Assembly (NCBI GenBank): GCA_902826775.1
Contig: CADEHE010000009.1
Span: 107,726-171,725 of the forward strand
DNA length: 64,000 bases
Origin: an uncultured Pseudomonadota bacterium
GTDB lineage: Bacteria > Pseudomonadota > Gammaproteobacteria > Burkholderiales > JALYOK01
Direction: 5' to 3'
In this document: positions 17,929-47,800 of the stretch, piece after piece
Layout: each line of letters starts with the position of its first letter
Position numbering within the stretch: the stretch's first letter is position 1
The notes under the pieces: generated by a model
Told to the model about the DNA's origin: nothing
Databases searched by the model: none
Seen by the model: only the letters and a program-made list of their open reading frames with translations
Translations under genes and position numbers: made by a program

Positions 17929-18182
17929 CCGAACTCGCCCGGCGGCATCCTGTTCGAGCAACGCCGTTGCCGCAATGGTATAGTTTGGCTTCGCCAAGCG
18001 CTTGATGCGCAGCGCCGCCATATCCAAGCGTTTGAGTTGCTCATGCGTTTGGATATGGCGGGCCTCCTCGCATTGCAGCGTGGTGAACCTGGTCAGGTCC
18101 GGAAGGAAGCAGCCACAACTACTTACTGCAAGTGCCGAGGGTCAGGCTCGCCACCCATTTTTGCCGGTGCTCAGCGGTCTTC

Positions 18183-30947: not shown

Positions 30948-31357
30948 CTAAATGCGGACTGTCGTCAAATTCCGCTGTAGGGTACTGCTAGGTCGTGCCG
31001 CCACCGGCGGTTCCACGGCTGCCTGTGCCACGAGTTTCGCTAGCAAGTCAATCGCCTTCGCGTAATCAGCCTCCACCTGCTGGAGTTGCGCATCCTTAGA
31101 GGACTCGCGCGCCTTACCCAGCCGCATCCAGAGGACCGCGAGATCGCGCCTGGCTACGATACTGTCCTTGTCTTCGGCAAGTGCGGCTTCGCGAAAGCGC
31201 AGCGCTTCGCCGAAGGAGGCGCTTGCCGCAGGTGCCGCTCTAGCAGCATTTTGACCCTCCCCACAGCACCCTTCGCGTGGTAGGTGATCGCTGCCTCCAA
31301 AGCGACCCAAGCTTTCGGGAGCCCCGCTTGGTCAAGTGTCAGAACTAGCGTGTCCAT
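30948..31357 (-). CDS. hypothetical protein, possibly frameshifted
   Basis: Two overlapping minus-strand ORFs (31154..31357 and 30948..31310) in different frames. Confidence 0.25.
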
Positions 31358-32579: not shown

Positions 32580-32853
32580 TCTCCTTGTTCTCAGATCAAT
32601 TGGTTCCGGCTTCCCGACCGCACAACGGGCATCCGTGTTGTCCGTGCCGGAGCACAGCCGCGCCTTGCGTGGGTCGCATCGGCCAGGCTCGATACACTCC
32701 AAGCCAGGCCAAGCAAATCACGCTCGGCTGTTGCTGCCTCGCGCGCGAACGCCAACAGCGCACAAGTCATACGGGCGGTGTGGCTGGCGATACACTGCCA
32801 ACCACCGAAGCCGGCCCCGGGTACTACAGTCGAAAGCCTTTCAAGGGCTTTGC

Positions 32854-32926
32854 TTTTCCAGCGGGATTCGAACCCGCGACCGATCGGTTATAAGCCGATT
32901 GCTCTACCCACTGAGCCATGGAAAAT
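32854..32926 (-). tRNA. tRNA-Ile(TAT)-like
   Basis: 73 nt; acceptor UUUUCCA/UGGAAAA; D-stem GCUC/GAGC; anticodon loop CUUAUAA; T-loop GGGTTCGAATCCC; no CCA. Confidence 0.6.
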
Positions 32927-33000
32927 GGAGCGTGCGGTAAGAGTCGAACTCACGACCTCGAGCTTTGGGGCTCGCGCTCTACCACTGAGCTACGCCCGCC
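32927..33000 (-). tRNA. tRNA-like with 6-nt anticodon loop (CCCAAA)
   Basis: Good acceptor, D- and T-arms and CCA, but the anticodon stem CGAGC/GCUCG encloses only 6 nt. Confidence 0.45.
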
Positions 33001-33167
33001 TATATCCATCGCTCCCGCATCGCGGTATGCGCCGATCCAACTCAAGGAGGGACGAGCGCACCAGGGAGGAACTCAAGAGCCTCACCCGCTGACAATGCGT
33101 TCACGACGAATTCGTTCTTGCCGTACTCGGCAAGATTGGATGTGGCAAATTGAAGGCAGAATGAGCT

Positions 33168-33282
33168 GGCACCGCCGGCAGGACTCGAACCCACAGCTAC
33201 GCAAAGGCAGGCGAAGGCTGAGCTTTGCTCATCTTCGCGTGCGTTCGAAGCGCGGCACTCTTCCATTGAGTTACGGCGGTGT
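33168..33282 (-). tRNA. 115-nt tRNA-like gene with 40-nt insert (type A)
   Basis: Acceptor CACCGCC/GGCGGUG plus CCA, D-arm and T-arm GGTTCGAGTCC are present. The anticodon/variable region is replaced by ACGCGAAGAUGAGCAAAGCUCAGCCUUCGCCUGCCUUUGCGU, which is identical to the insert in 36691-36806. Confidence 0.5.
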
Positions 33283-33288
33283 AAATCT

Positions 33289-33363
33289 GGTAGGCCCTGC
33301 AGGAATCGAACCTGCCTGGTGCGGAGTAAAAGTCCGCTGCCTCGCCGCTCGGCCAAGGACCCA
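33289..33363 (-). tRNA. tRNA-Lys(TTT)
   Basis: Anticodon stem GCGGA/UCCGC with loop CUUUUAC; T-arm GCAGG-TTCGATT-CCTGC; CCA encoded. Confidence 0.65.
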
Positions 33364-33370
33364 CATTGTT

Positions 33371-33474
33371 GGTTGGCGCGCACGCGCCGCGATAGGCGGC
33401 GCATGCTCTTTTCCAATCGAACCAAGCCGATCCTGTTTGTAAGACAGGTGTTTCCGCCAGGAAACCACGCGCCA
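33371..33474 (-). tRNA. tRNA-Val(TAC)-like with ~30-nt insertion 3' of the T-loop
   Basis: Acceptor GGCGCGU/GCGCGCC, D-stem GUUU/AAAC and anticodon arm CCUGU-CUUACAA-ACAGG are intact. The T-stem 3' half is replaced by an insert carrying the GCGCCGC/GCGGCGC hairpin. Confidence 0.4.
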
Positions 33475-33482
33475 GCTATCGT

Positions 33483-33726
33483 TCATAGTGATCGCGCATC
33501 ACGCCGTCGAAACCGGCCGCTGCGCAGACAGCATTTCTTGAAAGCTCTTGCTTGATCCGCACGGGCACGGATCGTTGCGACCGAGCTTATCGACGAGCTC
33601 TTTGTTACCGTGCACGACGCGTGCGCCACGTTTAACGCGGGTCTCCGATGGGAAACCTCTGCGGTGTTTGCTAGTGAGCTCGAAAGCTTTCCTGTTCTTC
33701 GTAATCGATTGCGTGCTTGTTCATGA
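33483..33726 (-). pseudogene. SEC-C motif domain small protein, disrupted by two frameshifts
   Basis: [14 protein letters not shown] (frame 1) continues in frame 2 through ...[15 protein letters not shown] and in frame 3 through [10 protein letters not shown]...; this reconstitutes the SEC-C zinc motif DPCPCGS..K.KKCC. Confidence 0.5.
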
Positions 33727-33782
33727 TGCACTCCCTCTATTGGTGCCCGGCTTACGCGGTCCAGGCTTCGCCGCATGATTGT

Positions 33783-33858
33783 TGGTAGGGGATCCAGGAT
33801 TCGAACCTGGGATGGTCGGCTTCAAAGACCGCTGCCGTGGCCGCTTGGCTAATCCCCT
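33783..33858 (-). tRNA. tRNA-Gln(TTG)
   Basis: Acceptor AGGGGAU/AUCCCCU; anticodon loop CUUUGAA with one mismatch in the stem; T-arm CCAGG-TTCGAAT-CCTGG; CCA encoded. Confidence 0.6.
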
Positions 33859-33870
33859 ACGTGTATGAGT

Positions 33871-33946
33871 TGGGGTGACCGACCGGAATCGAACCGGTAC
33901 CGCCGCGTTCACAGCGCGGCACTCTTGCCGTTGAGCTACGGCCACC
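33871..33946 (-). tRNA. tRNA-His(GTG)
   Basis: Encoded G-1 pairing with discriminator C gives the 8-bp acceptor; anticodon arm CCGCG-CUGUGAA-CGCGG; T-arm ACCGG-TTCGATT-CCGGT; CCA. Confidence 0.8.
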
Positions 33947-33956
33947 GTTGTAGTGT

Positions 33957-34034
33957 TGGCTCCGGCCAGTGGGATCGAACCACTCTCGTTCGCCGTTAAC
34001 AGCGGCGCGCTCTCACCTTGAAAGCTAGACCGGA
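33957..34034 (-). tRNA. tRNA-Asn(GTT)
   Basis: Anticodon arm CGCCG-CUGUUAA-CGGCG; T-arm AGTGG-TTCGATC-CCACT; CCA. Confidence 0.75.
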
Positions 34035-34042
34035 AAGGAGTT

Positions 34043-34117
34043 TGGCAGACCAGGAGGGATTCGAACCCCCATACGCGGTTTTGGAGACCGCTGCTCTGGC
34101 CGTTGAACCACTGGTCT
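34043..34117 (-). tRNA. tRNA-Trp(CCA)
   Basis: Anticodon arm GCGGU-CUCCAAA-ACCGC; perfect acceptor AGACCAG/CUGGUCU; CCA. Confidence 0.75.
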
Positions 34118-34191
34118 GTAGGCCGCGAGCGGCGCCGAGGGCGGAAACAACCTGCCACCGGCGCATCGCGGATAGAACTAACGCGCTCGCG

Positions 34192-35412
34192 CTACCCTTT
34201 CACGCACAGCACTTGCTTCAGGGTATGCACGACTTCGACCAGATCCGATTGCGCCGCCATCACTTCGTCGATGGACTTATATGCGCCCGGGATCTCGTCA
34301 ACCACGCCGCTGTCTTTACGACACTCGACACCGGCGGTTTGCTGCACCAAGTCCTCTTGCGAGAAGCGGCGCTTGGCTTCACCCCGGCTCATGCGGCGCC
34401 CCGCACCGTGCGAGCAGGACGCATACGCATCGGCATTCCCCTTGCCCTTCACGATGTAGGACTTCACCCCCATGCTGCCCGGGATGATGCCGAGCTGGCC
34501 TTCACGCGCTGACACCGCCCCTTTGCGCGTCACCCAGATTTGTTCGCCGAAGTGTTCTTCCAGGTTAGCGTAGTTGTGGTGACAGTTGATCGCTTCGAAT
34601 TGCGCTTCGATCTTACGACCGAGCGCATGCTCCAGCGCTCGCTTCACCAAATGCAGCATGATGTCGCGGTTAAGCGCCGCGTAGTCTTGGCACCAACGAA
34701 GGGCTGCGATGTACTCGTCGAATTCCTGACTGCCTTGGTCTAGCCACGCCAGATCACGATCCGGCAAGTGTGTTTGGTTCTGCCGAGCGAGTTCTCGAGC
34801 GGTGGTGACCGCGGCCTCGCCGACAGTTTTGCCGACGTTGCGGCTGCCGGAGTGCAGCATGATCCACACACCTTGGGCTTCATCTAGGCACAACTCGATG
34901 AAGTGATTTCCGCCACCGAGCGTACCAAGCTGTTGCCACATGCGTTTGTGATCAAATTTGCCCACACGCGCCATGATTTGCAGGGCATCGAAGCGCGGCA
35001 TCAACGCCTCGATGCGACGCTTGAGCGCCATGCCTTCAAGGCCTTGGTTACCAGGCTTGACGCTATCGCCGTGGTAGTTGAAGCCGACCGGCACATCGCG
35101 TTCGATCTGGTGACGAACTTTTTTCAAACTGTCCGGCAGATCGGAGGCGGTCAGTTGTGTCTTCATTGCCACCATGCCGCAGCCGATATCTACGCCCACT
35201 GCAGCGGGGATGATCGCACCGCGAGTTGGAATGACGCTGCCAACTGTTGCACCCATGCCGAAATGCACGTCCGGCATGATCGAGATATGACCAGCCAGGA
35301 TTGGTAACGCGGAAATGTTGCGGATTTGCTGCAACGCTTGCTGCCCGACTTCCATATCGCCGGTCCATAGGCGCACGCCCTTTATCGTTTGTTCGTATTG
35401 GTTCTTAAGCAT
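34192..35412 (-). CDS. rtcB: RNA-splicing ligase RtcB (3'-phosphate/5'-hydroxyl RNA ligase)
   Basis: ~406 aa; RtcB motifs IMPDVHFG, GSVIPT, AVGVDIGCGM and C-terminal HGAGR; SD GGAAAGGAGG lies 5 nt upstream of ATG 35412. Confidence 0.85.
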   Translation of the reverse strand: MLKNQYEQTIKGVRLWTGDMEVGQQALQQIRNISALPILAGHISIMPDVHFGMGATVGSVIPTRGAIIPAAVGVDIGCGMVAMKTQLTASDLPDSLKKVRHQIERDVPVGFNYHGDSVKPGNQGLEGMALKRRIEALMPRFDALQIMARVGKFDHKRMWQQLGTLGGGNHFIELCLDEAQGVWIMLHSGSRNVGKTVGEAAVTTARELARQNQTHLPDRDLAWLDQGSQEFDEYIAALRWCQDYAALNRDIMLHLVKRALEHALGRKIEAQFEAINCHHNYANLEEHFGEQIWVTRKGAVSAREGQLGIIPGSMGVKSYIVKGKGNADAYASCSHGAGRRMSRGEAKRRFSQEDLVQQTAGVECRKDSGVVDEIPGAYKSIDEVMAAQSDLVEVVHTLKQVLCVKG

Positions 35413-35452
35413 GACGCCTCCTTTCCGTACGGCGTTATTGTGGTTGAGAAAA

Positions 35453-35530
35453 TGGTCAGTGCGGTGAGATTCGAACTCAGGACCTCCGCGTTCCGGACGC
35501 GGCGCGCTGGTCAAGCTGCGCTACGCACTG
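35453..35530 (-). tRNA. tRNA-Pro(CGG)
   Basis: Perfect acceptor CAGUGCG/CGCACUG; D-stem GCGC/GCGC; anticodon arm CCGCG-UCCGGAA-CGCGG; CCA. Confidence 0.75.
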
Positions 35531-35536
35531 GAAATA

Positions 35537-35733
35537 TGGTCCTTGGAGTTGGGTTCGCACCATCCCCGCGCAGCGTGGCCCCTTGGTACGTGGGCAGCGA
35601 TGCGGGCGTACTCGCGCCGATAAACGTTAGCACGGTCGATGCGCGCCTACACGGTCGCTCGTTCCGAGGCGCCTCGTTTCGGCGCGCCTCGCAAGCATCG
35701 GTCGCGCGCTCTGCTAGGCTGAGCTACCCAAGG
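35537..35733 (-). tRNA. 197-nt tRNA-like unit with ~125-nt internal insertion
   Basis: Acceptor CCUUGGG/UCCAAGG plus A-CCA and canonical 5' GUAGCUCAGC...GAGC D-arm; atypical T-loop (GGUGCGAACCC); GC-palindromic internal insert, no canonical anticodon arm found. Confidence 0.35.
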
Positions 35734-35743
35734 AGATTGTTAG

Positions 35744-35816
35744 CAGGGGTGCTTGGATTTGAACCAAGGTCATTCGGTTTCAGAGGCCGACGTTCTCGCC
35801 GCTGAACTACACCCCG
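35744..35816 (-). tRNA. tRNA-Gln(CTG)
   Basis: Perfect D-stem GUUC/GAAC; anticodon loop CUCUGAA; T-arm CUUGG-TTCAAAT-CCAAG; 1:72 is a C-U mismatch (compare the weak U1-A72 of Gln tRNAs); no CCA. Confidence 0.55.
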
Positions 35817-35825
35817 CTTGATAGG

Positions 35826-35902
35826 TGGTGCCGTCGGCCAGGTATTGAGCCTGCCTCTCGGGCTTTTCAGACCCGCGCTAATCCGTCTCAGCTACAGCGG
35901 CA
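35826..35902 (-). tRNA. tRNA-Phe(GAA)-like with aberrant T-arm
   Basis: Anticodon arm CGGGU-CUGAAAA-GCCCG; T-loop CTCAATA with a bulged stem. Confidence 0.5.
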
Positions 35903-35908
35903 TTCATT

Positions 35909-35983
35909 TGGAGATGCGCCTCGGAGTCGAACCGAGTTCTCCCGCTCTGCACACGGGCACCTAAGCCGTTCGGCCAACGCATC
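35909..35983 (-). tRNA. tRNA-Cys(GCA)
   Basis: Anticodon arm CCCGU-GUGCAGA-GCGGG; T-arm CTCGG-TTCGACT-CCGAG; CCA. Confidence 0.65.
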
Positions 35984-35990
35984 ATGATTC

Positions 35991-36065
35991 TGGAGCCGCA
36001 TTCGGGAGTTGAACCCGCTTCCCCGGTTTACAAAACCGGCGCATCACCGCCAATGCTTGTGCGGC
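35991..36065 (-). tRNA. tRNA-Thr(TGT)
   Basis: D-stem GCAU/AUGC; anticodon arm CCGGU-UUUGUAA-ACCGG; CCA. Confidence 0.7.
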
Positions 36066-36071
36066 CGTACT

Positions 36072-36148
36072 TGGTGGTTCGGGCTGGAGTCGAACCAGCG
36101 TCCTGCGGGTTATGAGCCCGCTGCTCTTCCGTGCTGAGCTAGCGAACC
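36072..36148 (-). tRNA. tRNA-Met(CAT), elongator-type
   Basis: Anticodon arm GCGGG-CUCAUAA-CCCGC; paired 1:72, so not an initiator; CCA. Confidence 0.75.
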
Positions 36149-36154
36149 GAAATC

Positions 36155-36231
36155 TGGCACCCCTGGCAGGATTCGAACCTGCACCGGCGCGGGTAGAAGC
36201 CGCGTGCTCTGATCCGTTGAGCTACAGGGGC
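36155..36231 (-). tRNA. tRNA-Arg(TCT)
   Basis: Anticodon arm CGCGG-CUUCUAC-CCGCG; T-arm GCAGG-TTCGAAT-CCTGC; CCA. Confidence 0.75.
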
Positions 36232-36237
36232 AATTGT

Positions 36238-36315
36238 TGGTGCGACGCCTGCGAGTCGAACGCAGAAGCCATCCGGTTTAAGCGGACGAGGTATACCGAT
36301 TCCCATCGGCGTCGC
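36238..36315 (-). tRNA. tRNA-Leu(TAA)-like with short variable arm
   Basis: Perfect acceptor GCGACGC/GCGUCGC; anticodon arm GUCCG-CUUAAAC-CGGAU; class I-length variable loop and an atypical D-region; CCA. Confidence 0.5.
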
Positions 36316-36325
36316 AATTCGTTGA

Positions 36326-36419
36326 TGTGCCGCCCGAGATTCGAGCTCGGAAGCCGAAAGGTTTGAGCTTTCGAGGGGACGGCAAGGGGCTCTGCCCTCT
36401 GGTCAGCCGTCAGCAGCAC
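36326..36419 (-). tRNA. tRNA-Leu(CAA)-like, 94 nt, with a hairpin inserted in the D-loop
   Basis: Acceptor GUGCUGC/GCGGCAC; D-stem ACGGC/GCCGU encloses the GGGCAGAGCCC hairpin; anticodon arm with loop CUCAAAC; T-arm CCGAG-CTCGAAT-CTCGG; no CCA. Confidence 0.4.
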
Positions 36420-36429
36420 ATGGTTGATC

Positions 36430-36508
36430 TGGCGAGGCGTAGGGGATTTGAACCCCTGATCTTCGGATCGACAATCCGATGCATTCAGCCGGACTATGCT
36501 AACGCCTC
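36430..36508 (-). tRNA. tRNA-Asp(GTC)
   Basis: Perfect acceptor GAGGCGU/ACGCCUC; anticodon arm UCGGA-UUGUCGA-UCCGA; T-arm AGGGG-TTCAAAT-CCCCT; CCA. Confidence 0.8.
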
Positions 36509-36535
36509 AAAAATCCGCAGCACCAAAGCTGCGGC
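36509..36535 (-). terminator. rho-independent terminator-like hairpin inside the array
   Basis: Minus strand reads CCGCAGCUUUGGUGCUGCGG followed by AUUUUU. Confidence 0.4.
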
Positions 36536-36589
36536 AAAACCCAACTCGCAAACGTGTGAAACGCTGCCAAGTCAGGAGGAGGAGACTGT

Positions 36590-36682
36590 TGGCGGAGAGA
36601 CAGGGATTCGAACCCTGGCATCATCGTTACCGACGATTCTTGTTTAGCAGACAAGCGCCTTAGTCCACTCGGCCACCTCTCC
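36590..36682 (-). tRNA. tRNA-Ser(GCT)
   Basis: Type II D-arm GCCGAGUGGACUAAGGC; anticodon arm CUUGU-CUGCUAA-ACAAG; long variable arm; CCA. Confidence 0.75.
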
Positions 36683-36690
36683 ATTGATGC

Positions 36691-36806
36691 TGGCATCCCC
36701 GGCAGGATTCAAACCTGCGACCACGCAAAGGCAGGCGAAGCCTGAGCTTTGCTCATCTTCGCGTCGATTCGTAATCCGTCGCGCTATCCGCTGCGCTACG
36801 GGGATG
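36691..36806 (-). tRNA. 116-nt tRNA-like gene with 40-nt insert (type B)
   Basis: Perfect acceptor AUCCCCG/CGGGGAU plus G-CCA, canonical D-arm GCGC-AGCGGAUA-GCGC and T-arm GCAGG-TTTGAAT-CCTGC. The central region carries the same 40-nt block as 33168-33282. Confidence 0.5.
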
Positions 36807-36812
36807 GCGTGC

Positions 36813-36900
36813 TGGTGGAAGGCAGGTCGAGTCGAACGCCAAGCCTCGCGGCTCCTTCTGCTTTCAAGGCGGTGCCCAGGCCCCCCCAGGGTTACCTTCC
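36813..36900 (-). tRNA. type II tRNA-like, Ser(TGA)-like loop, degenerate stems
   Basis: Acceptor GGAAGGU/GCCUUCC plus A-CCA; loop CUUGAAA identical to the Ser(UGA) anticodon loop, but the anticodon and T stems do not pair well. Confidence 0.4.
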
Positions 36901-36906
36901 GTCGTT

Positions 36907-36982
36907 TGGTGGAGATGGCGGGACTTCAACCCGCACGTTCTCGCTTGCAAAGCGAGTCCTCTAGCGATTGAGCTACATCCCC
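36907..36982 (-). tRNA. tRNA-Ala(TGC)
   Basis: G3:U70 identity pair present; anticodon arm CUCGC-UUUGCAA-GCGAG; T-arm GCGGG-TTGAAGT-CCCGC; CCA. Confidence 0.8.
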
Positions 36983-36993
36983 GTGAATCTTGC

Positions 36994-37068
36994 GGTGCGT
37001 CGCCCAGGAGTTGAACCTGGACCTTCCGGATTAAGAGTCCGACACTCTGTCAGTTGAGCTATCGACGC
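36994..37068 (-). tRNA. tRNA-Lys(CTT)
   Basis: Anticodon arm UCGGA-CUCUUAA-UCCGG; T-arm CCAGG-TTCAACT-CCTGG; 7:66 mismatch; CC encoded. Confidence 0.65.
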
Positions 37069-37071
37069 ATG

Positions 37072-37173
37072 TGGTGCGGGCGGTCGGTTTCGAACCGACG
37101 GCATCGAGTTTGGAAGGCTCGCGCACGCGAGCGCAGCCGAGCACCACCGTTATTGCATCTGAGCTACACCCGC
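37072..37173 (-). tRNA. 102-nt tRNA-like gene, anticodon undetermined
   Basis: Acceptor GCGGGUG/CGCCCGC plus A-CCA, UA-GCUC D-arm start and T-arm GTCGG-TTCGAAA-CCGAC; GC-palindromic central region. Confidence 0.4.
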
Positions 37174-37179
37174 CAATAC

Positions 37180-37255
37180 TGGTGAACCGTGCGGGGCTCG
37201 AACCCGCTACCTCCGGCTTGAAGGGCCGGGCGCGCGACGCTTTGCATTACGGTTC
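37180..37255 (-). tRNA. tRNA-Glu(TTC)
   Basis: Perfect acceptor GAACCGU/ACGGUUC; anticodon arm CCGGC-CCUUCAA-GCCGG; T-arm GCGGG-TTCGAGC-CCCGC; CCA. Confidence 0.7.
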
Positions 37256-37260
37256 ACACA

Positions 37261-37336
37261 TGGAGCAGACAGCGAGCCTCGAACTCGCAGCCTCGACGCT
37301 GGCGGCGTCGCGCTCTACCAACTGAGCTATGCCTGC
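37261..37336 (-). tRNA. tRNA-Gly(GCC)
   Basis: D-arm GCUC-AGUUGGUAG-AGC; anticodon arm CGACG-CCGCCAG-CGUCG (C33); CCA. Confidence 0.7.
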
Positions 37337-37511
37337 CCTCAATCTGTGTCTAGCCTGCCGCCCCGCTCGGCGAAGCATCGAACAAACCGCGTGTGAGGAC
37401 ACGATCAGCTCGCCTTCGCCGAGCGACGACAGACTTTTTTGCCACATCCAACTTGTAAAAGATCAAGCCGCGTGCCCCCGGTCGCTATGCCGGCGCGGTA
37501 CTGCCAAAATT

Positions 37512-37621
37512 TGGTGCCCCGCAGGGGCCGCAAGGGACCCTGCCCTTTGCTTAGCCGAGATTCGAACTCGGATCATTCGGTTTCTAAGACCGACGCGTAT
37601 GCCTTGTTCCGCCAGCGGGGC
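37512..37621 (-). tRNA. tRNA-Leu(TAG)-like with 32-nt insertion between T-arm and acceptor 3' strand
   Basis: Perfect acceptor GCCCCGC/GCGGGGC plus A-CCA; Leu-type D-arm UGGCGGAACAAGGCAUACGCG; anticodon arm UCGGU-CUUAGAA-ACCGA; T-arm CCGAG-TTCGAAT-CTCGG is followed by CUAAGCAAAGGGCAGGGUCCCUUGCGGCCCCU. Confidence 0.4.
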
Positions 37622-37622
37622 G

Positions 37623-37710
37623 TGGTGGATGGTGATGGAGTTGAACCACCGGTGTTCCTATGGAATCCTGCTTTACAGGAAGGCGCCTTCGTCCGCTCGG
37701 CCAACCATCC
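37623..37710 (-). tRNA. tRNA-Tyr(GTA)
   Basis: Perfect acceptor GGAUGGU/ACCAUCC plus A-CCA; type II D-arm; anticodon loop CUGUAAA; 16-nt variable arm; T-arm GGTGG-TTCAACT-CCATC. Confidence 0.65.
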
Positions 37711-37765: not shown

Positions 37766-38153
37766 GGTGTTCGATCAATTGATCGGTTACATCAAGTACT
37801 TCTCCCGAATTGCACACACGTATGCCGGCTCATCTCCGCTATTGAGCGCAAAGCCAGCGTCATGCGAACCCATACCTAACGGCTGGACGCACAAGGACGC
37901 GGCGGCGCGCTTTGCGGCGCGGTTCCGGTCTATGTTCATTGATGTCCTGTTCGTCAGCATGGTCGTGTTCGTGAAATTAAGGAGACGGCTCGTTCGTTAC
38001 GTCGCGCAAAGTGGCAGATGCCCAATCGGCGCGATGCTCAAGAAATGACATCGTAAGGGCTGAGTAACTCGCTGTCAAGCATTTTATGGAATATATTTTC
38101 AGATAATGCAATTTCTGCTACACTTCGCCCATCGATTTGTGAGGGTCGATACC

Positions 38154-38399
38154 ATGACATCTACTACTTCTACTAAGCCGCGCCGGCTCAAATGGCGCAC
38201 TCGTGTCGTGATGGCTGAGCGGGGCGTTCGCTCCGTTTCGGCCCTGCGCCGTCAACTCGAAGTTCTCGGCATCAAGATCTCGGATGCCCAGCTCGGGCGC
38301 ATCGTCGACGGTAAATCCAGTCACTTCAATTCAGCCGTACTCGGCGGGCTGCTTGCCGTGCTGAACTGCGGTCTTAGCGACTTGATCGCCGTTCGCTAG
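38154..38399 (+). CDS. helix-turn-helix (Cro/C1-like) domain protein
   Basis: 81 aa from MTSTTSTKPRR; HTH-like RSVSALRRQLEVLGIKISDAQLGRIVDG; followed by a terminator hairpin at 38405-38440. Confidence 0.45.
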   Translation: MTSTTSTKPRRLKWRTRVVMAERGVRSVSALRRQLEVLGIKISDAQLGRIVDGKSSHFNSAVLGGLLAVLNCGLSDLIAVR

Positions 38400-38740: not shown

Positions 38741-39286
38741 ATGGCAACCGGCTTCTTCCCGCTTCAGTACGCGATCGCAGCCATTGCTGTTTGGCTCAAC
38801 CGCCAACAGCAAGAGGTGATCGACTATCTGAAGGAAAAGAACCGGCTACTCAAGGAGAAGCTCGACAACAAGCTTCGTTTCACCGACGCAGAGCGCCGGC
38901 GCTTAGCGGCCCGAGCGAAGTTGCTTGGCCGCAAGATTCTAGCCCAGCTCGATACGCTGGTCACGCCGGACACGCTGCTTCGCTGGCACCGAGAATTGAT
39001 CGCGCAGAAATGGAAGCAACTCCTCGAGCGCAAACCAGGTCGGCCGCGCACCAAGGAAATGATTGTGGCGCTGGTGCTTCGCTTGGCGCAGGAAAACTCT
39101 GGCTGGGGCTGCAGGCGTGTTCTCGGCGCGCTCAGTAATGTCGGCTACAAAGTTAGCCGCAGCACAATCGTCAACATCCTCGCGCTGAACGGCATCGATC
39201 CAGCACCGTTGCGCAGCAAGCGCACAACTTGGTCGACTTTCCTTAAGGCGCACTGGAAGATACTGAAGCTGGATCGTGCGGGTTGA
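38741..39286 (+). pseudogene. transposase N-terminal fragment (IS481/IS3-like HTH region, no DDE domain)
   Basis: GRPRTKEMIVALVLRLAQENSGWGCRRVLGALSNVGYKVSRSTIVNIL resembles the HTH N-terminus of integrase-core transposases; the ORF ends after 181 aa without a catalytic domain. Confidence 0.5.
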
Positions 39287-40292: not shown

Positions 40293-43200
40293 TTAGCTGC
40301 CGCGAAGCGGAATGATCTCCGCGTAGACCAAGCGTTCGTCCACCGCGATGCGATCGTGCGGCGTGCCGCCTAAATTGGCGCGCTCGATGCGGTCACTGTA
40401 GTAGCGCTCGTACTCGCGCACCATCAGCCGTAGTGGTTGGTCGGCCAAGTTCGCCGGGATTGCCACGCTGCGGTCGAAGATCGGCGCCAGCTGCGCGCTG
40501 GCGCCGGGCGTGATCTCGACTTGCGCAGCTGTGACGCCGCCAGCCGCGCCGAGCACAACGCCGGCAAGCAGCGTAGGCCGGCTCGGCGCCGTGCCGGCAA
40601 CAGCGAAGACCCCCGTCTCCTCCAAGCGCGGTGACGCAACGCTAGTCGCTCCGAGCGCAACGCCCAAATCGGTCACCGGCGTGAGCACCGAAGGCGCACC
40701 GCCTTGCGGCGTGGCATCAGCCCACACCGCGGTGCCAGGCACATCGTGCCACGCCAAGTCAGAATCGATCTGCGCGTCGCGCGTTTGCAGCACGGCTTCG
40801 ATGCGATTCTTGTGCGCGTCGCCGGTAGGGATCGACGGCGAGAACGACAGTCCGATCCAAATCTGCTCGCCTTGCGGTGCCTTCACGCTGCCAGTCTCGG
40901 GCGCCAGGCCGTAGACTTTCACGCCGAGCGCGGTGCCGTCGGCGGCGGGTTGGACGTACAAGTTACGGTGCGGCGCGACTTGCGCGAACTCCGCCAGCGC
41001 CACTTGCGAGATGCGGGCCTGTGCCAACGCGTTCGGCTGGTATCGCACCAGCGCTAAGCGAACGAAGGGAAAATAGCTGGCGAGGCTGATGTCGATATCA
41101 CAGAACCAGCGCCGGTTAGCGCCATCCCACTCAACGCGGTGACCGGCGATGTCGACATTGGCGCCGAACTCTTCGAGCCACACATTGTGCTCGCTGTATA
41201 CCCCGCGCGGGAAGGCGGTAGGACGCGGCCAATTTGCCGTGATCCCGGAGTTGAACAACGGATCGACGCCCCACAGCGTGACGAAGGGCTTGGCAGTGTT
41301 GGGCAGTTGCGCCATCGCTTGAGTAGGTAGCGCTACGCCTAGCAATTCGCCGTCACCGGAGGAGAACCACGGGCGCTCGAGGTACACGCGCAGACCGCCG
41401 CCGCGGCGCGAGCTCACGTAGCTTCCGTCGGCGGCGGGAAATTGGCGTGACCAGCCGAAGGTCGGCAGGACATACTGAATCTTCGGCGCTACCGGGCGCG
41501 CACTTGCGCGCACCATCACGCCGAACTTTGCCGCACCGGCGTCAGGCAATACCGGCGCGCCAGGATCATCTCCCGAGCCGAACTTAACATTAATGCCGTC
41601 AAAAGGATCGCCTTCGCGGATTAGATTCTTTACTTCGTCGGTGAGTTTCACCGGGAAGAATTCGCGGAAGCGCGTCGTGGCCACCAGGCGGTAGCGAATC
41701 AAGCGAAACTTGGTGTCGCCGAACTCATGCACGTCGCCGCGCACTTGCTTGTCTGCCAAGCCGTTGGGCGCGGCGATTTCGCCGAGATCGAACACGTTCT
41801 TGAAGTTCTCCGGCAGACGCACCGGCGCCAGGCGCACGCTCGCAGCAATGCGCCGCGGTGCGGGTTCGGCCAGATCGTCGATCCATTCGCTCCACTCACC
41901 CAGCACTTCGACTTGGCCGGTCGACGGCCCATGCAGGCGCACTTGAGTGCGCAGCCGCGCGTTGGTTGCGCCCATTGCACGGCTCGTCGCGATCAGCAAG
42001 AACTGCGGGGCGCATACCGGCTGTTGCGTAGCGTGCGTCAGCGTTAAGTCACGATGCGGCGCAATCATCCAATGGCTGCCCGCGAGCGCGTAGCGCCAGG
42101 CGTTGTCGCGCTGTGCGGCGTTCTCGATCCAGTCGAGCACGCCGAAGTGATCGAGCGTGTCTTTGCGCGGGACGCTGGCGTAGCGCACACGCGCGATGCG
42201 CCCTTTGGCCAGAAACACAGTGAGCACGCGCGCTTGCGCATCCCAACTGGGCGCACCGTCATCGGCAAATGCCTCCGCGCAAACGCTCGCGTCTAGCGCC
42301 GCGCCGCGCTCGACTACATGCAAGCGCAAGCCGCGCGCGTCGGGCCACGCCTGATCGTAGTCGACGATGAGCACGAGTTCTTGGTTCGGCAGACGCTCGA
42401 TGCGGGCGCCCTCACCAAGGGCTCCTTCCGCACTTACGCCGGGTAGGCCGCGAAACACGACGCCGCCCGCAGCTACATCGGGCAAGTAGGGCACTACCAA
42501 CTGCGCTTCGCGATGAACAAAGTACTGCCCGCCGCTTAACCGATCGCCGCTCGGATTGGTTTCACTCGGCGCGGCGATGGGCAGATCGGCTTTGGTGACG
42601 CCGCGCGCGCTCGGCGGCGTAACGAGTTCGACCTGGCCGCTCGTTACATCCTGCAATGATCCCGCTTCGCGCGCTGCGATGTCGTACCCCTCCTGCACCT
42701 GAGCGCTGTTGGCGGGCTGGCCGATGGCGGCGTCGAATGCGCCGTGCGTTTCGGCCATGAGTTGCGATGTTTTGGGCGGCGCGAAGTGGCGCGCGGCAAA
42801 ATCGCGGTACTCGAAAAAATCCTCACGCGTGGAACTAAAGGGCTCGGTCTGCAAGTAAGCAGCCGGATCGGAGTCGAAGTTGCTGCGCACGACCAAGTGT
42901 TCGATCGATTCACCCTCGGACACTTTCGCATCGAGCACGACCACCGGCGGATCGAGCGGCTCGAAGCGTTGATAGCGCACTCGCTCGCTGGCGTAGTTAT
43001 CGTCGCCCTCTTTGATATTGATGCTATTGCCAGCCAAATCGACGCAGCGCGCGCGCATGCGATAGCCGCGTCCGAAGCGCAGGCGCGGCAATGAGCCTGG
43101 CGCGACCCGGAACTGGGCGATGATGCCGCTGCCTTGCTTAGCCTCGTCTTTCACCTCTGTCACGCGCTCGCCTTGCGCAGCGTTGTCGGCGTCCGCTACT

Positions 43201-44873
43201 GGCACCAGCGTGCGGCCCGGGCGTGGGACGGCCAAGCTCCAGCCGTTCCACTTGAACAGGGTCTCGTGCAAGTAGTGATTGTTGTCATCATTCTCGTTCG
43301 ACGTGGTCGAGGCGCCTTTGACGTAGCCCTCGTCGACTTCTTCCGGCATGGCGATCGGCGTGCCGTCCTGCAGGCGGTAGCTGCCCACGCGCTGCATGAG
43401 CGAACGCCAGTTGCCATCGTCGATGTCGACACGGTAACCGCGCAGCACGTCTTCTGCGAAGAGCGGCGCGGGCGTCGCGTTGCTTTCGATCTGTTGGTTC
43501 AACTGCGCAGCGTTCAAGCTTTGCTGCGCCGTGCGCAACGCGCGGCCATGGCGCGATAATGCCAAGCCGCCGCTGCGTAGCGCTGCTAAGCCAGTGTCAT
43601 TCGGCGTCGTGTAGGCAGCCTGTGCGTAGATCACGGAATCGGGGCTGCTCTCTTGCATTTGCGCGGGCAGGCGCTGCACCAGCGTGCGCAGCAGGCTGAT
43701 GGTTTGGTTGACTGTCTTCAACGCCGCGCCGTCGGGATCGACTTGACTCAAGTCGAACAGATGTTTTTCATTGGCATAGCGATCGTTGGTGTCGGTCAAA
43801 CGCAACTGTCCCCGCTCGATTTCCTCAGAGTTGCGCGCGCGCATCGTGAAGCGGTCGGCATACAAGCTGATCGCCACGACCGGCGTCACATCGGTTTGGT
43901 TCAGCACGTGGTTCGGCAACAGCTTAGGCAGCAAGCGCATGGTGCCGAGCGGGAACGGCGCCGGGGTTTTGAACTCGATGTCGATGATCAGCCCTAGTGC
44001 ACGCAAGATCTGCGGCATATCGGCTAGTGCGGCAACCTTGCGATGGAAATCGAACTTTGGTTGCGCCGGCGGCGGCGGGACTTGGGTGCGATCGGGGTAG
44101 CGCAGGTAGTCGGGCTTGTTCTCCACGCGCGAGTAGAAGCGGTTGGCTTGGTAGAAATCAAACTCGGCGCGCGTGGCGAAAAGGCTGGTCGGATAGTTCG
44201 ATGAATTCGGATTGAATGCGCGCGGCTTGCGCGCTGCAATCGGCGCATTGAGATCGGCTTCCGCGCCGAACAACTGGCGGTTGATGGTTTGGTCCAGTTT
44301 GTCGCGCTGCTCCTTGCTGCCAAAAAAGCGCTCAAAACCGGAGTGGATCGGCGCATGCGGTCGCTCGGCGTTGTACGCGCGCTCAAACTCGCGCATGACC
44401 GTGCTGCGATCGATGCCAAGCTCGCCCAGCATATTAGTGAGCGCGCTATCGGCCTGATCGAACGGCAGCAGCTGCGGCAGTTTATCCGGCGCCGGCGCAG
44501 CGGCAAGCGTACCGTAGTGGCGGCGCGTGAAGTTCATGATCGCTCGCACCTGATATGAGTGCAAGCGCGGCAAACTCATATCCTTGAACTGAAATCCTTC
44601 GACGAAGGTGTCGGTGGGAAATACACTGCGCCACAGATCGCTGTCGGGGTTGGTGGCTACTTTGACTTCGAGCGCTTGGCCGTTGATTTCGACCTCGAAA
44701 CTCATGTTACTCAAGGTGCGCGGCCAATCGAGCCACTCGTCAAACGCGCCGAGCGTTTGTTCGTTAGCACTCTCCGGTGTCAGGCGCGGCGAAACCACGA
44801 TCGAGGCGCGCAATCGCCCCGGTTTGCCGTAGCCATTTGGCAATACTGGCCAAAGGATCTTTTGCTTAGCCAT
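40293..44873 (-). CDS. giant hypothetical protein (1526 aa)
   Basis: Uninterrupted ORF with host-like GC, 16 bp downstream of a second giant ORF on the same strand; no family recognised. Confidence 0.6.
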   Translation of the reverse strand: MAKQKILWPVLPNGYGKPGRLRASIVVSPRLTPESANEQTLGAFDEWLDWPRTLSNMSFEVEINGQALEVKVATNPDSDLWRSVFPTDTFVEGFQFKDMSLPRLHSYQVRAIMNFTRRHYGTLAAAPAPDKLPQLLPFDQADSALTNMLGELGIDRSTVMREFERAYNAERPHAPIHSGFERFFGSKEQRDKLDQTINRQLFGAEADLNAPIAARKPRAFNPNSSNYPTSLFATRAEFDFYQANRFYSRVENKPDYLRYPDRTQVPPPPAQPKFDFHRKVAALADMPQILRALGLIIDIEFKTPAPFPLGTMRLLPKLLPNHVLNQTDVTPVVAISLYADRFTMRARNSEEIERGQLRLTDTNDRYANEKHLFDLSQVDPDGAALKTVNQTISLLRTLVQRLPAQMQESSPDSVIYAQAAYTTPNDTGLAALRSGGLALSRHGRALRTAQQSLNAAQLNQQIESNATPAPLFAEDVLRGYRVDIDDGNWRSLMQRVGSYRLQDGTPIAMPEEVDEGYVKGASTTSNENDDNNHYLHETLFKWNGWSLAVPRPGRTLVPVADADNAAQGERVTEVKDEAKQGSGIIAQFRVAPGSLPRLRFGRGYRMRARCVDLAGNSINIKEGDDNYASERVRYQRFEPLDPPVVVLDAKVSEGESIEHLVVRSNFDSDPAAYLQTEPFSSTREDFFEYRDFAARHFAPPKTSQLMAETHGAFDAAIGQPANSAQVQEGYDIAAREAGSLQDVTSGQVELVTPPSARGVTKADLPIAAPSETNPSGDRLSGGQYFVHREAQLVVPYLPDVAAGGVVFRGLPGVSAEGALGEGARIERLPNQELVLIVDYDQAWPDARGLRLHVVERGAALDASVCAEAFADDGAPSWDAQARVLTVFLAKGRIARVRYASVPRKDTLDHFGVLDWIENAAQRDNAWRYALAGSHWMIAPHRDLTLTHATQQPVCAPQFLLIATSRAMGATNARLRTQVRLHGPSTGQVEVLGEWSEWIDDLAEPAPRRIAASVRLAPVRLPENFKNVFDLGEIAAPNGLADKQVRGDVHEFGDTKFRLIRYRLVATTRFREFFPVKLTDEVKNLIREGDPFDGINVKFGSGDDPGAPVLPDAGAAKFGVMVRASARPVAPKIQYVLPTFGWSRQFPAADGSYVSSRRGGGLRVYLERPWFSSGDGELLGVALPTQAMAQLPNTAKPFVTLWGVDPLFNSGITANWPRPTAFPRGVYSEHNVWLEEFGANVDIAGHRVEWDGANRRWFCDIDISLASYFPFVRLALVRYQPNALAQARISQVALAEFAQVAPHRNLYVQPAADGTALGVKVYGLAPETGSVKAPQGEQIWIGLSFSPSIPTGDAHKNRIEAVLQTRDAQIDSDLAWHDVPGTAVWADATPQGGAPSVLTPVTDLGVALGATSVASPRLEETGVFAVAGTAPSRPTLLAGVVLGAAGGVTAAQVEITPGASAQLAPIFDRSVAIPANLADQPLRLMVREYERYYSDRIERANLGGTPHDRIAVDERLVYAEIIPLRGS

Positions 44874-44889: not shown

Positions 44890-47800
44890 CTAAGCAAACG
44901 CTTCGCAGTATGTGGCCCAGGGCGACTCGGCCACGCTCTGCCCGACGCTCGGGCCTACGAGTGCAACGAAAGTCGGATCGCCATTCGAGCCGGCGAACTT
45001 GCGCTCAGCGGAAACGGTCACGCTCATCGAGAACATGAAGATTTCGATCTCGATGGTGAGTTGTGCGCGCCCGACGCACTTGCCGCTGGCGAACTCGTAG
45101 CGCAACTCCAAATACAATTCGATCGAGGCCGAGATCAGGCCGAGTACATCGACGTAGCCACCCAAGCGGAAGTAGCCGGTTAGCGAGGCTTCGTCTTGTT
45201 CCATGCGGAAATACACGCCGGCCATGACGTGCACACCGCCGGAGGCGACGCCGAGATCGACGGAGATCGAGGCGCCGAACTCGAATGCCGCCTCCAACAC
45301 TTGCACGCCACCCGGATCGAGCGTAATGCCGAAAAAGCCGCCGCCGCCAAATAGTGTGACGGTCAACAAAAACGGCTTGTGCCGTTCGCAGAAAAAGAAT
45401 CGTACCGACAGCGGTTCGCCGATGAATGGCACGGTAAAGCCGGCGCCGAGGCTCAGGTTCTGCAAGCTGAACATGCCCACCGCGATGCCGGGCAGTGCCA
45501 TCGAAAAATTGGCGTCGATGCCTCTTTCCGAAATGTCCAGCGACGGCGGATCGGAAAACCCGTCGAGCGGAATCAAATCGCGCAGCGTTTCCACGAACGA
45601 CAACACGCCGATGAAGCGGATGTCGCGCAGCAGCACGTCTACGTTCATTTTGGCGCCGGCGTCGACGCTGAAACCGATGCGCTCAAAGTCGATTTCGATG
45701 AACCCGTTTTCCTGCCCAATCAAAACTAGCGAGAAGTTTGACAAGGCGCAGCTGACTTGCCCCTTTGGCGCGCCGCCGGTTTTCTTAACGCGCGCTTCAG
45801 CGGCGAGCACGAAAGCGCGCTTGTCGTGCGGCACGAACAGCGGATCGGCCTTAGGCCAGGGCTTGATTTCGGGCACCCATTCCAGACGCACTTTGATCTC
45901 TTCGCCGAACAATGCGTCCAAGAACTGCGGCAGCGCGGCGAGCAGCGCGCTGAGCGCTTCGCACAGGTGCAGCAGATTGTCTTTAAGCGCGCCTTCGAGC
46001 AATTGCGCGGGTTTTAGTGCCACAGCAAAATTGTCGATGTCGGTCTTGAGCAGCGGCAACTGCACGTTGGCGAAAGCGGAATCCGACAGCAGCTTGGAAA
46101 AATTACCGGGGTCGAGTATCAAGTCAGCCAGGCGCAGCGCCAAGGGCTGCGCCGCACCGGCTAGCGGCGGCAGTTGCGCGAACGTGCCAAGCGCGCTTTG
46201 CAGCGCATCGAGCTTGCTGGTGATGGACTGGCGGTTGAACACCGGCAAGCCGGGCGCGTTGGCGTCGCTAACTGTTTGCCGCACGGCGCTGATCAATGCT
46301 TGCAAATCGCTCACTTGCTGCGCGAGAGCGGCCGGGTTATCGAGCAGCGTGCCGGCGGCGGCGATCACCTGATCCAGCTTGGTGTTGAGGTTGGCAAGCG
46401 CTTGGTTGACGGCTGTCAGATTGTTTTGCGCGTTGGCGGTGAGATTTTTGATTTCCTGCGCAACCACATCGCGCAGCGCGGCGACGGCCCGCTGCAGCGC
46501 CTGCGCGATCATCTCGCCGATGAGGGCCTTGAGGCCATCGACATCGCCCAGCAGTTTTTGCAAGTCGCCGACGAAGTTCTCGATCTGCGTGGCAGCTTCG
46601 GAAATAAACTTGGGAAATTTCTTCAGTCCGTCGCTACTGTCGAGGCCGGCCACTTCGACGACGATATCCCACAGGTTGATCACGCCGAACAACTTCGGCG
46701 AGAGGGTGCTGAAGAATTCCTTCGGGTTGAACTTGCCCGCCGCCATCTCATCGAGATTGGCCGGCGTCGAACTAGAGATCGGTCCGAGCGTGCGCGATAG
46801 CGCTTTTGGCGTGAGATTTGGCTGCACGAACCCACCGGATTTATCGCCCTGCTTACTGAAATCGAGTTTGCTGTCGCCGCCAGTGACTTCGAGAAATACT
46901 TCGTTGTCGTTGCTGCCGCCGCCGAACGGCGTGGCGCGCGTCAAGTATGGTTTGTAGTAGCGCATGAAGCTCGGTGCGCTGGAGCCGGTGAGGTGCTGCG
47001 CAGCGGGGATACACGCGCCTGTGGCCTCGATAAATGGATAAAACTTGATCGGATCTTTGCTGTCCGGATACGCGCCGAGGTTCTTGGTAAAGGCATTGAA
47101 CACCAGCGCGTGCGTATCGCACGCCGTGTCGCCGGGACTGCGCGGCGGTGCGTAGGCGAGCTTTTGACCGTTTAACTGCGCGGTACGCCGCTCGGTGAAG
47201 ACGGGCGTGTTGGTCGTGTAGAACGTGGCCGCTTGCTCGACGCCGCCCGGCGTATTGAGTTTGACGTTATCGATGAACACCAGCGGCAGGGCGAACTGCA
47301 CTCGGCGGCCTTCGAGATCCACAGCTACGATATCGAAGGGGAGCGGTTTGCCAAGCACGAAGGGGCGGAACAAAGATTGCCCGCCCTGCGTGATGTCCGC
47401 GCTCTCCGGCGGATCGAGATTCGGCGTGACCGTGGTGAGCAACTGCACCGACACAAACGGAAACTGGCGGTGATAACGCAAGGGGTCGGGCGCGGCGCCG
47501 TCGTTCCACTTTTCTGCATCTGCATCGTGCGCAAAGGTACGCAGCGGCTCGCGCACGATGATGTACATGCGTTGCCGCAGGATCGCCGGCGTGCCGGGTT
47601 CGGCGAAATGAAACTTGCGCTCGGTGACTTTGACCAATGAGGCGCGATGGCCGAATGGGAACAGCACGCCTTTGTACACAACTTTCACGTAGTGATCGCG
47701 CGCTTGCGTAGCACCATGCACCCACTCTTGCACTGAAAGGCTGGCCGGTGGCTGCCAGGTGCCGCGCGCGTCGAACCAGGCACCGAGACTGGTGAGCATC

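Follow-up and report, generated by a model that had tools for sequence, protein, structure and literature searches.

Two predicted tRNA-Arg genes in a 64 kb stretch of contig CADEHE010000009.1, from an uncultured Pseudomonadota bacterium, carry near-identical 40 nt inserts at the same position of the anticodon stem. The whole 64 kb stretch is referred to here as the window. The genes lie 3.5 kb apart in a long array of accessory tRNA genes (Table 1), and an earlier note had described them as two tRNA-like units with an acceptor stem, CCA, a D-arm and a T-arm. Judged from their sequences, the units are genes for the UCG and ACG isoacceptors of tRNA-Arg, which read CGN codons, and they are most likely recently inactivated copies in a decaying array. 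We give an even chance to the explanation that a quasi-palindromic DNA insertion occurred recently and was spread between the two paralogous genes, inactivating both.

The Rfam tRNA model (RF00005, gathering score 29) matched both units at its full length, with 42.0 bits for the UCG unit at 33170-33280 (-) and 41.6 bits for the ACG unit at 36694-36805 (-). Each match is followed by CCA, in agreement with the arms described earlier. In both alignments the insert appears as a 42 or 51 nt local insertion in the anticodon arm. The earlier note had found no 7 nt anticodon loop in either unit. However, the loops CUUCGAA (anticodon UCG) and UUACGAA (anticodon ACG) are present with their 5' stem strands, and are the same as those of orthologues that lack the insert. 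The note had proposed a deliberately non-decoding tRNA-like RNA, and had allowed that a structure model with a normal anticodon arm would speak against it; as a normal anticodon loop is placed in both units, the case for such an RNA is removed. Nor are the scaffolds unrelated, both being tRNA-Arg isoacceptors.

When the 40 nt were deleted in silico, ARAGORN returned a standard 74 nt tRNA-Arg(tcg) for the UCG unit and a standard 75 nt tRNA-Arg(acg), with a perfect 5 bp anticodon stem, for the ACG unit. In intron mode, the intact ACG unit was reported as tRNA-Arg(acg) with a 40 nt intron, and the UCG unit was mis-registered as tRNA-Ser(cga) with a 38 nt intron; both genes were overlooked in standard mode. 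A20 in the D loop, C35, G36, the CCA end and the acceptor, D and T arms are all kept. With intact anticodon loops and a canonical tRNA-Arg after deletion, the units are thus best described as interrupted tRNA-Arg genes.

Site and extent of the insert

The block common to the two units, CGCGAAGATGAGCAAAGCTCAG[C/G]CTTCGCCTGCCTTTGCGT, is found at 33199-33239 (-) and 36723-36763 (-), and the copies differ at one position. There are exactly two copies in the window, where none is expected (0 in 100 shuffles), and no weaker copy was found elsewhere in the window. The shared ~40 nt block reported in the earlier note is therefore real. However, it does not stand in place of the anticodon and variable region. 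Its position in both genes is after nucleotide 40 and before nucleotide 41, which places it within the 3' side of the anticodon stem; the variable loop is kept. In the ACG unit the only placement that restores the stem strand (UCCGU) is UC-GACGCGAAGAUGAGCAAAGCUCAGGCUUCGCCUGCCUUUG-CGU. The UCG unit is compatible with the same placement, CG-(CACGCG...UUUG)-CGU, with a boundary that can slide 1 nt either way. In alignments, each unit in the window is an orthologous tRNA-Arg gene with a net addition of 39 nt.

Identity between the two copies extends from base 2 of the insert through the first three bases of the 3' exon, giving a common 42 nt tract, ACGCGAAGATGAGCAAAGCTCAGSCTTCGCCTGCCTTTGCGT. The exon bases that follow the insert are CGU in both units, and CGG and CGC in the orthologues. 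Thus, nucleotide 43 is U in both units, where the orthologues have G (UCG) and C (ACG), respectively. One variable-loop base, nucleotide 44, is also missing from both, leaving the loop 1 nt shorter and otherwise present. The ACG unit has A at position 27, where its orthologues have G, and so has a perfect A27-U43 pair, while a C27.U43 mismatch remains in the UCG unit. Outside the 42 nt tract each unit is more like its own orthologues than like the other unit, and the flanks are otherwise not homogenized. As the CGU and the variable-loop loss are shared, they appear to be a co-converted flank, as expected of a DNA copying event.

Empty sites in related arrays

Homologous arrays were gathered using as an anchor the gene for the RNA ligase RtcB, which lies within the array, and the loci were labelled L001-L174. 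The related arrays are syntenic with the window, with DNA identities of 70-88% overall. In L001 and L002, which are from betaproteobacterial metagenome-assembled genomes, RtcB is 90-91% identical to that of the window and synteny covers window positions 38443-31432 (70-85% DNA identity). In L168/L169, RtcB is 97% identical and the DNA is 87.4% identical over 4 kb. Further relatives are L170/L171, L172 and L173. Seven related arrays have empty sites, where the syntenic tRNA-Arg genes are ordinary, 76-79 nt long and without the insert. Canonical tRNA-Arg(UCG) genes were found in L001, L002, L168/L169, L170/L171 and L173, and canonical tRNA-Arg(ACG) genes in L001, L002, L170/L171 and L172.

When the block was used as a blastn-short query, it was absent from 161 RtcB-anchored loci and from seven further Logan, ENA and JGI loci (174 compared loci overall). 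The exact 24-mer core of the block had no match in IMG/VR viral contigs or JGI metagenome contigs, and blastn with a 61 nt query found nothing in PLSDB plasmids or INPHARED phages. In 32 sources, no structural relative was returned by a covariance model of the block and its hairpin. In eight other RtcB-linked arrays (L001, L002, L034, L115, L150, L151, L152 and L160), all hits of the Rfam tRNA model were 95 nt or shorter, which rules out insert-bearing tRNAs as a general trait of such arrays. ARAGORN in intron mode, applied to the RtcB-anchored loci, returned mostly fusions of neighbouring tRNA genes.

The earlier note had suggested a mobile mini-insertion or an intron targeting tRNAs. This holds in so far as the same 40-42 nt tract occupies a homologous position in two genes and is absent from seven related arrays, but the premise that the units have no anticodon arm does not. 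The note had also raised the possibility of a shared sequencing or assembly artefact, which can be set aside with near certainty. The ACG unit with the block is present in the Logan assembly of ERR3089230 (100% identity over 9.8 kb), and the UCG unit with the block in that of ERR3089228 (100% identity over 7.9 kb). The UCG unit with the block was also found in the Logan assembly of ERR3089236, in a contig with three SNPs elsewhere (30680, 31315 and 32127) that indicate a distinct strain. As the block recurs in independent assemblies of three runs, it is not an artefact of assembly. The organism itself is present in the DNA runs ERR3089227-ERR3089239.

Structure and possible origin of the insert

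Folding of both units predicts the GCGAAG/CUUCGC stem and the inner hairpin (UGAGC-AAA-GCUCA) that the earlier note had drawn. The block is predicted to be able to form two mutually exclusive helices, GCGAAG:CUUCGC or ACGCGAAG:CUUUGCGU, the second of which includes exon bases 41-43. A canonical anticodon stem-loop with a side hairpin is less stable than the alternative folds, by 11 kcal/mol in the UCG unit and 2.5 kcal/mol in the ACG unit. The predicted folds differ between the units, and that of the UCG unit buries part of the anticodon loop.

As DNA, the block has imperfect 8 bp terminal inverted repeats (ACGCGAAG...CUUUGCGU, 7/8 complementary) and a nested palindrome. Its first 8 nt, ACGCGAAG, nearly repeat the native insertion site of the UCG gene (ACGCGGAAG in L168), and its two 3' arms, CUUCGC and CUUUGCGU, are inverted copies of this sequence. 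As the 5' end nearly repeats the native site and the 3' arms are inverted, fold-back template switching at the site itself may have given rise to the block.

In the history we favour, the two units would be supernumerary tRNA-Arg genes of a horizontally transferred long tRNA array. A quasi-palindromic DNA segment of ~40 nt would have entered the 3' strand of the anticodon stem of one of them, in the window lineage only. The 42 nt tract, made up of the insert from base 2 and the exon bases CGU, would then have been copied into the equivalent site of the other gene, 3.5 kb away. We infer that this was a short non-reciprocal event at the DNA level, either short-patch gene conversion or template switching, and that the two scars, the change of nucleotide 43 to U and the loss of nucleotide 44, travelled with the tract. 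The direction of copying could be either: the resemblance of the 5' end of the block to the native UCG sequence favours an origin in the UCG gene, and the perfect A27-U43 pair favours an origin in the ACG gene. Because the acceptor, D and T arms are undamaged, end processing of the transcripts would be expected to continue, giving tRNA-like RNAs of ~115 nt with a CCA end. Decoding would probably be lost, both through the helix that projects from the anticodon stem and through the lower stability of the canonical stem-loop relative to the alternative folds. Either this protruding helix, or a long rod burying G36-A38, would keep the RNAs from the ribosomal decoding site.

Several observations weigh against this history. 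Identity between the flanks of the two genes is only 4-8 nt, which is short for RecA-type gene conversion, and the left junction has no clean microhomology. Deletion of exactly 40 nt gives canonical tRNA-Arg genes, and the RtcB gene is situated between the two interrupted genes. The exons are 92% and 95% identical to those in L002, among the best values in the array, and paired changes in the ACG unit preserve pairing in the D stem, where U12-A23 has become G12-C23, and at 27-43, where G-C has become A-U. These changes could reflect selection still acting on the tRNA fold. Further copies of the block may exist in the remaining source genome or in GTDB genomes, as the searches covered the window and the collections named above.

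The terminal repeats could alternatively mark a non-autonomous mini-element, like a repetitive extragenic palindrome (REP) or a miniature inverted-repeat transposable element (MITE), that is mobilized in trans. Such an element would target the anticodon-arm DNA of tRNA-Arg genes (…CGAA-N2^CG…); the copies seen would then be independent insertions, and more would be expected in the genome. The imperfect 8 bp repeats and nested palindrome, the identical target position in two genes that locally share CGAA..CG, and the presence nearby of IS-related genes (38741-39286; weak IS481/IS3-like hits) are all in keeping with this. However, only two copies are present in 64 kb, both in tRNA-Arg genes, and neither has a target-site duplication; in both, three to four target bases were replaced, not simply split. 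No RAYT or IS200-type transposase was seen in the window, and the block was not found in the IMG/VR, JGI metagenome, PLSDB and INPHARED collections or in the 174 compared loci. We consider a mini-element unlikely.

Other damaged tRNA genes in the array

The two tRNA-Arg genes are not the only broken members of the array. In a tRNA-Val(UAC) homologue at 33363-33482 (-), a 34 nt palindromic segment stands in place of the T stem's 3' strand (CCAAG in L168). This segment includes a perfect 7 bp GC palindrome and forms a terminator-like hairpin on the + strand (33384-33402), and the gene is probably a pseudogene. A tRNA-Ile(GAU) homologue at 35531-35742 (-) is ~135 nt longer than in L001 and L002, with the addition placed after the variable loop and before the T stem; its anticodon loop is CCGAUGC and its fold stability is unremarkable (z = -1.7). 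The D loop of the tRNA-Gly(UCC) gene at 37075-37173 (-; Rfam 43.9 bits) is enlarged by a 32 nt insertion; the L170 counterpart, at 87 nt, is likewise longer than usual, but the difference lies elsewhere in the gene. The sequences that disrupt the Val, Ile and Gly genes are unrelated to the 40 nt block. The 5' half of a tRNA-Leu(CAA) gene has diverged. An HNH homing-endonuclease gene that follows an SPFH gene in L168, L170 and L172 is represented in the window only by a remnant at 31262-31357 (-), which retains the first 32 codons (91% identity). By these features of its sequence, the array appears to be decaying in the window lineage.

Introns, mimics and other RNA functions

Some of the observations that sit poorly with a dead insertion would suit an enzymatically spliced tRNA intron. 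An endoribonuclease that leaves 2',3'-cyclic phosphate and 5'-OH ends and needs no bulge-helix-bulge (BHB) would cut after nucleotide 40 and after the 40th intron base, and the RtcB of the array would seal the exons. Functional tRNA-Arg(UCG) and tRNA-Arg(ACG) would result, and the intron would have spread between the two genes through homing or reverse splicing, taking the 3' flank along by co-conversion. Exact removal of 40 nt does yield canonical tRNA-Arg genes, the same site is occupied in two isoacceptors with a common CGU flank that resembles exon co-conversion, and the exons are well conserved with compensatory changes. An RtcB-type 3'-P/5'-OH ligase, as associated with protein-spliced tRNA introns, is encoded inside the array, and near-identical introns in different tRNA genes have an archaeal precedent (PMC4090602).

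BHB motifs were sought at every pair of candidate cut sites, using the published geometry of two 3 nt bulges and a 4 bp helix and the relaxed hBH and HBh' forms (PMC4090602). At the sites defined by orthology only one of the four pairs of the central helix can form, in both units, and the scan found no motif, relaxed variants included, that is common to the two units and gives a proper tRNA. An archaeal BHB intron is thereby ruled out. The two junctions share no common sequence. Pfam and NCBIfam searches of selected ORFs between 26.7 and 52.2 kb of the window returned EAL, BLUF, SPFH, HTH and IS-like hits and no endonuclease, of the EndA/TSEN splicing type or any other. RtcB is equally present in all of the arrays that lack the insert, so its presence is uncorrelated with the insert, which itself is confined to one lineage and absent from all other arrays examined. 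Neighbouring tRNA insertions cannot be introns, as in the Val gene with its replaced T stem. The tRNA introns described for Bacteria in the literature consulted are group I introns (PMC13011429). Altogether, no positive evidence for a spliced intron was found, and we regard this reading as distinctly improbable.

Further known classes can be rejected as well. At a permissive threshold (E up to 1), the Rfam matches at both loci were to tRNA only, with no intron or ribozyme family. A group I intron is excluded by the length of the insert (40 nt, against a core of ~200 nt or more), by its site in the stem at 40/41 and by the lack of an Rfam match. A mimic resembling tmRNA, YrlA or Y RNA found no support, with no tmRNA reported by ARAGORN and no such Rfam hit at the loci. 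The block was not flagged as an intrinsic terminator. An operator repeated in the array promoter was also discarded, as there is no other copy of either half-site pattern or of the palindrome.

The decoy, primer or tmRNA-like role raised in the earlier note found no support: the same lack of Rfam matches applies, and the block is not conserved beyond one lineage. A different functional RNA could be imagined: a sponge or decoy for a tRNA-Arg-specific anticodon nuclease, acting alongside RtcB repair under translational stress, or an arginine donor acting off the ribosome. The intact acceptor, D and T arms, A20, C35, G36 and CCA end and the near identity of the insert copies would fit such an RNA, and it has been suggested that the tRNAs of long arrays soak up toxin RNases as sponges (PMC8421152). 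However, no related array has the insert, so the function would have to be unique to one lineage. The units fold differently, with part of the anticodon loop buried in the UCG unit, there is no evident partner gene, and the rest of the array is decaying. A functional non-decoding RNA is accordingly very unlikely.

Comparison with known systems

For short inserts that are identical in separate tRNA genes, the nearest functional precedent is the transposition of introns among the tRNA genes of Thermoproteales (Fujishima et al. 2010, as reviewed in PMC4090602). As in the archaeal non-canonical introns, a short insert in the tRNA body is near-identical in different genes, an RtcB-type ligase is present and removal gives a canonical tRNA. 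Here, however, the host is bacterial, there are two copies, both in tRNA-Arg genes, no EndA-type gene was found among the ORFs tested and there is no BHB; as this defining motif is absent, the insert falls outside the archaeal intron family. To our knowledge, the only tRNA introns known in Bacteria belong to group I. These likewise interrupt the anticodon arm and have a patchy distribution with empty sites in relatives. However, they measure at least ~200 nt, contain a P1-P9 catalytic core and occupy the anticodon loop, while the insert described here is 40 nt, lies in the stem (40/41) and has no Rfam intron match.

In its ~40 nt length, lack of coding capacity, hairpin folding and imperfect terminal inverted repeats, the insert resembles REP and MITE repeats. 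These repeats are normally multi-copy and extragenic, whereas the block is present in two copies in the window, inside tRNA-Arg genes and without a target-site duplication, and nothing similar was found in the collections searched. The intervening sequences of bacterial 23S and 16S rRNA are removed by RNase III without re-ligation. They too place an extra hairpin within a stable-RNA helix and are sporadic among strains, but they are longer and form extended RNase III duplexes, and a tRNA cut in the anticodon stem without re-ligation would not decode.

The array itself resembles the long tRNA arrays (L-arrays) described in 2021 (PMC8421152) in its ~30 same-strand tRNA genes, embedded RtcB gene, HNH remnant, upstream regulator, varied chromosomal contexts and non-functional members. 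It differs from the described L-arrays in the short insertion shared by two isoacceptor genes, none having been found in the literature searched. We regard the finding as a case of disrupted tRNA genes in accessory arrays, with a small but real chance that it represents a categorically new system. If the inserts are dead scars, they provide a natural example of the decay of an accessory tRNA array, and of the copying of a short hairpin insertion from one tRNA gene to its paralogue where the flanks share hardly any homology. They would then be of interest mainly to those who annotate tRNA genes, because ARAGORN in its standard mode overlooks both genes. Splicing of the inserts, if it occurs, would overturn the view that tRNA introns in Bacteria are exclusively self-splicing, and would give array-embedded RtcB ligases a role in splicing. 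We know of no other non-self-splicing tRNA intron system in Bacteria, and this one, if it is such, would be the first, copying itself between tRNA-Arg genes.

The tRNA array and its surroundings

L-arrays are horizontally transferred and usually silent, and contain pseudogenes (PMC8421152). In the 4.9 kb of the array in the window, ARAGORN reported 20 genes and the Rfam tRNA model gave 24 hits. The array has at least 20 same-strand supernumerary tRNA genes, a patchy distribution and linked RtcB, HNH remnant and HTH_26 genes, as expected of an L-array. It is syntenic with those in L001, L002, L168, L170 and L172, and the homologous arrays lie in differing genomic contexts. The Cro/C1-type HTH gene also adjoins the arrays of L170 and L172. 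A bacterial signal recognition particle (SRP) RNA at 18057-18155 identifies the replicon as bacterial; the ORFs directly downstream of it are putative dnaX, ybaB and recR genes.

Table 1. Positions in the window of the interrupted tRNA-Arg genes, the two insert copies and associated features
Feature	Position	Strand	Details
tRNA-Arg(UCG) gene, interrupted	33167..33280	-	114 nt including encoded CCA; anticodon 33246-33248
tRNA-Arg(ACG) gene, interrupted	36691..36805	-	115 nt including encoded CCA; anticodon 36770-36772
40 nt insert, copy 1, CACGCGAAGAUGAGCAAAGCUCAGCCUUCGCCUGCCUUUG	33202..33241	-	alignments with five empty-site orthologues, block search, fold
40 nt insert, copy 2, GACGCGAAGAUGAGCAAAGCUCAGGCUUCGCCUGCCUUUG	36726..36765	-	alignments with orthologues, block search
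Long accessory tRNA array (L-array) containing both units	32852..37710	-	about 30 tRNA or tRNA-like genes, one strand
RtcB RNA ligase gene (3'-phosphate/5'-OH ligase), within the array	34192..35412	-	Pfam PF01139, E = 2.3e-127, full length
Promoter-like site ahead of the array's first tRNA gene	38050..38078	-	TTGACA-17-TACGAT, 10/12 positions; consensus match only
Divergent Cro/C1-type HTH gene upstream of the array	38106..38399	+	Pfam HTH_26, 28.7 bits

Several further features of the array were noted. Between tRNA-Ser(GCU) and tRNA-Asp, at 36515-36534 (-), a hairpin and T run resembling a terminator (CCGCAGC...GCTGCGG ATTTTT) could divide the array into separate transcription units. Directly upstream of the tRNA-Arg(ACG) unit, at 36812-36905 (-), is a tRNA-like gene with an 8 bp acceptor stem, a 6 bp D stem, a long variable arm and a 4 bp T stem. 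Its anticodon is UGA, and CGA in relatives. It was missed by ARAGORN, and scored only 36.3 bits with the Rfam tRNA-Sec model (gathering score 47). This gene is conserved in L170, L002 and L001 with four compensatory pairs, and presumably resembles an allo-tRNA or a Sec-like serine-type tRNA. Between the tRNA-Arg(UCG) gene and the next tRNA gene, a spacer of ~150 nt (33000-33167, -) is conserved in four related arrays at 74-88% identity. Its consensus fold from five arrays has 44 pairs, five of them with compensatory changes, and no Rfam match; on this model, the spacer may be an undescribed structured RNA of these arrays. The tRNA gene at 32926-32999 (-) has a 6 nt anticodon loop (ARAGORN 'tRNA-??? 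(ca)') and is conserved in L002 and L168, and the tRNA gene adjoining it has the anticodon UAU in the window and L168, and CAU in L002.

A small ORF at 33415-33724 (-), between tRNA-Gln and the tRNA-Val remnant, encodes a SEC-C-like CPCGSxKSF motif and is conserved in L174 (62% over 98 aa); a frame that overlaps it is conserved in L168 and has a stop codon in the window. A 97 aa ORF at 33483-33776 was considered as a frameshifted SEC-C protein, but the conserved CPCGSxKSF ORF in the other frame (L168, L174) is the better candidate, and neither is related to the insert. Just outside the array, two adjoining giant ORFs at 40293-44873 (-) and 44890-49395 (-), of 1526 and 1501 aa, had no Pfam or NCBIfam match. 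At positions 1-10000 of L168, the closest relative, the upstream half of the array and the N-terminus of RtcB have been replaced by genes of transposon type (for TniQ, rve and an AAA ATPase) and by a ParE/PaaA2 toxin-antitoxin pair.

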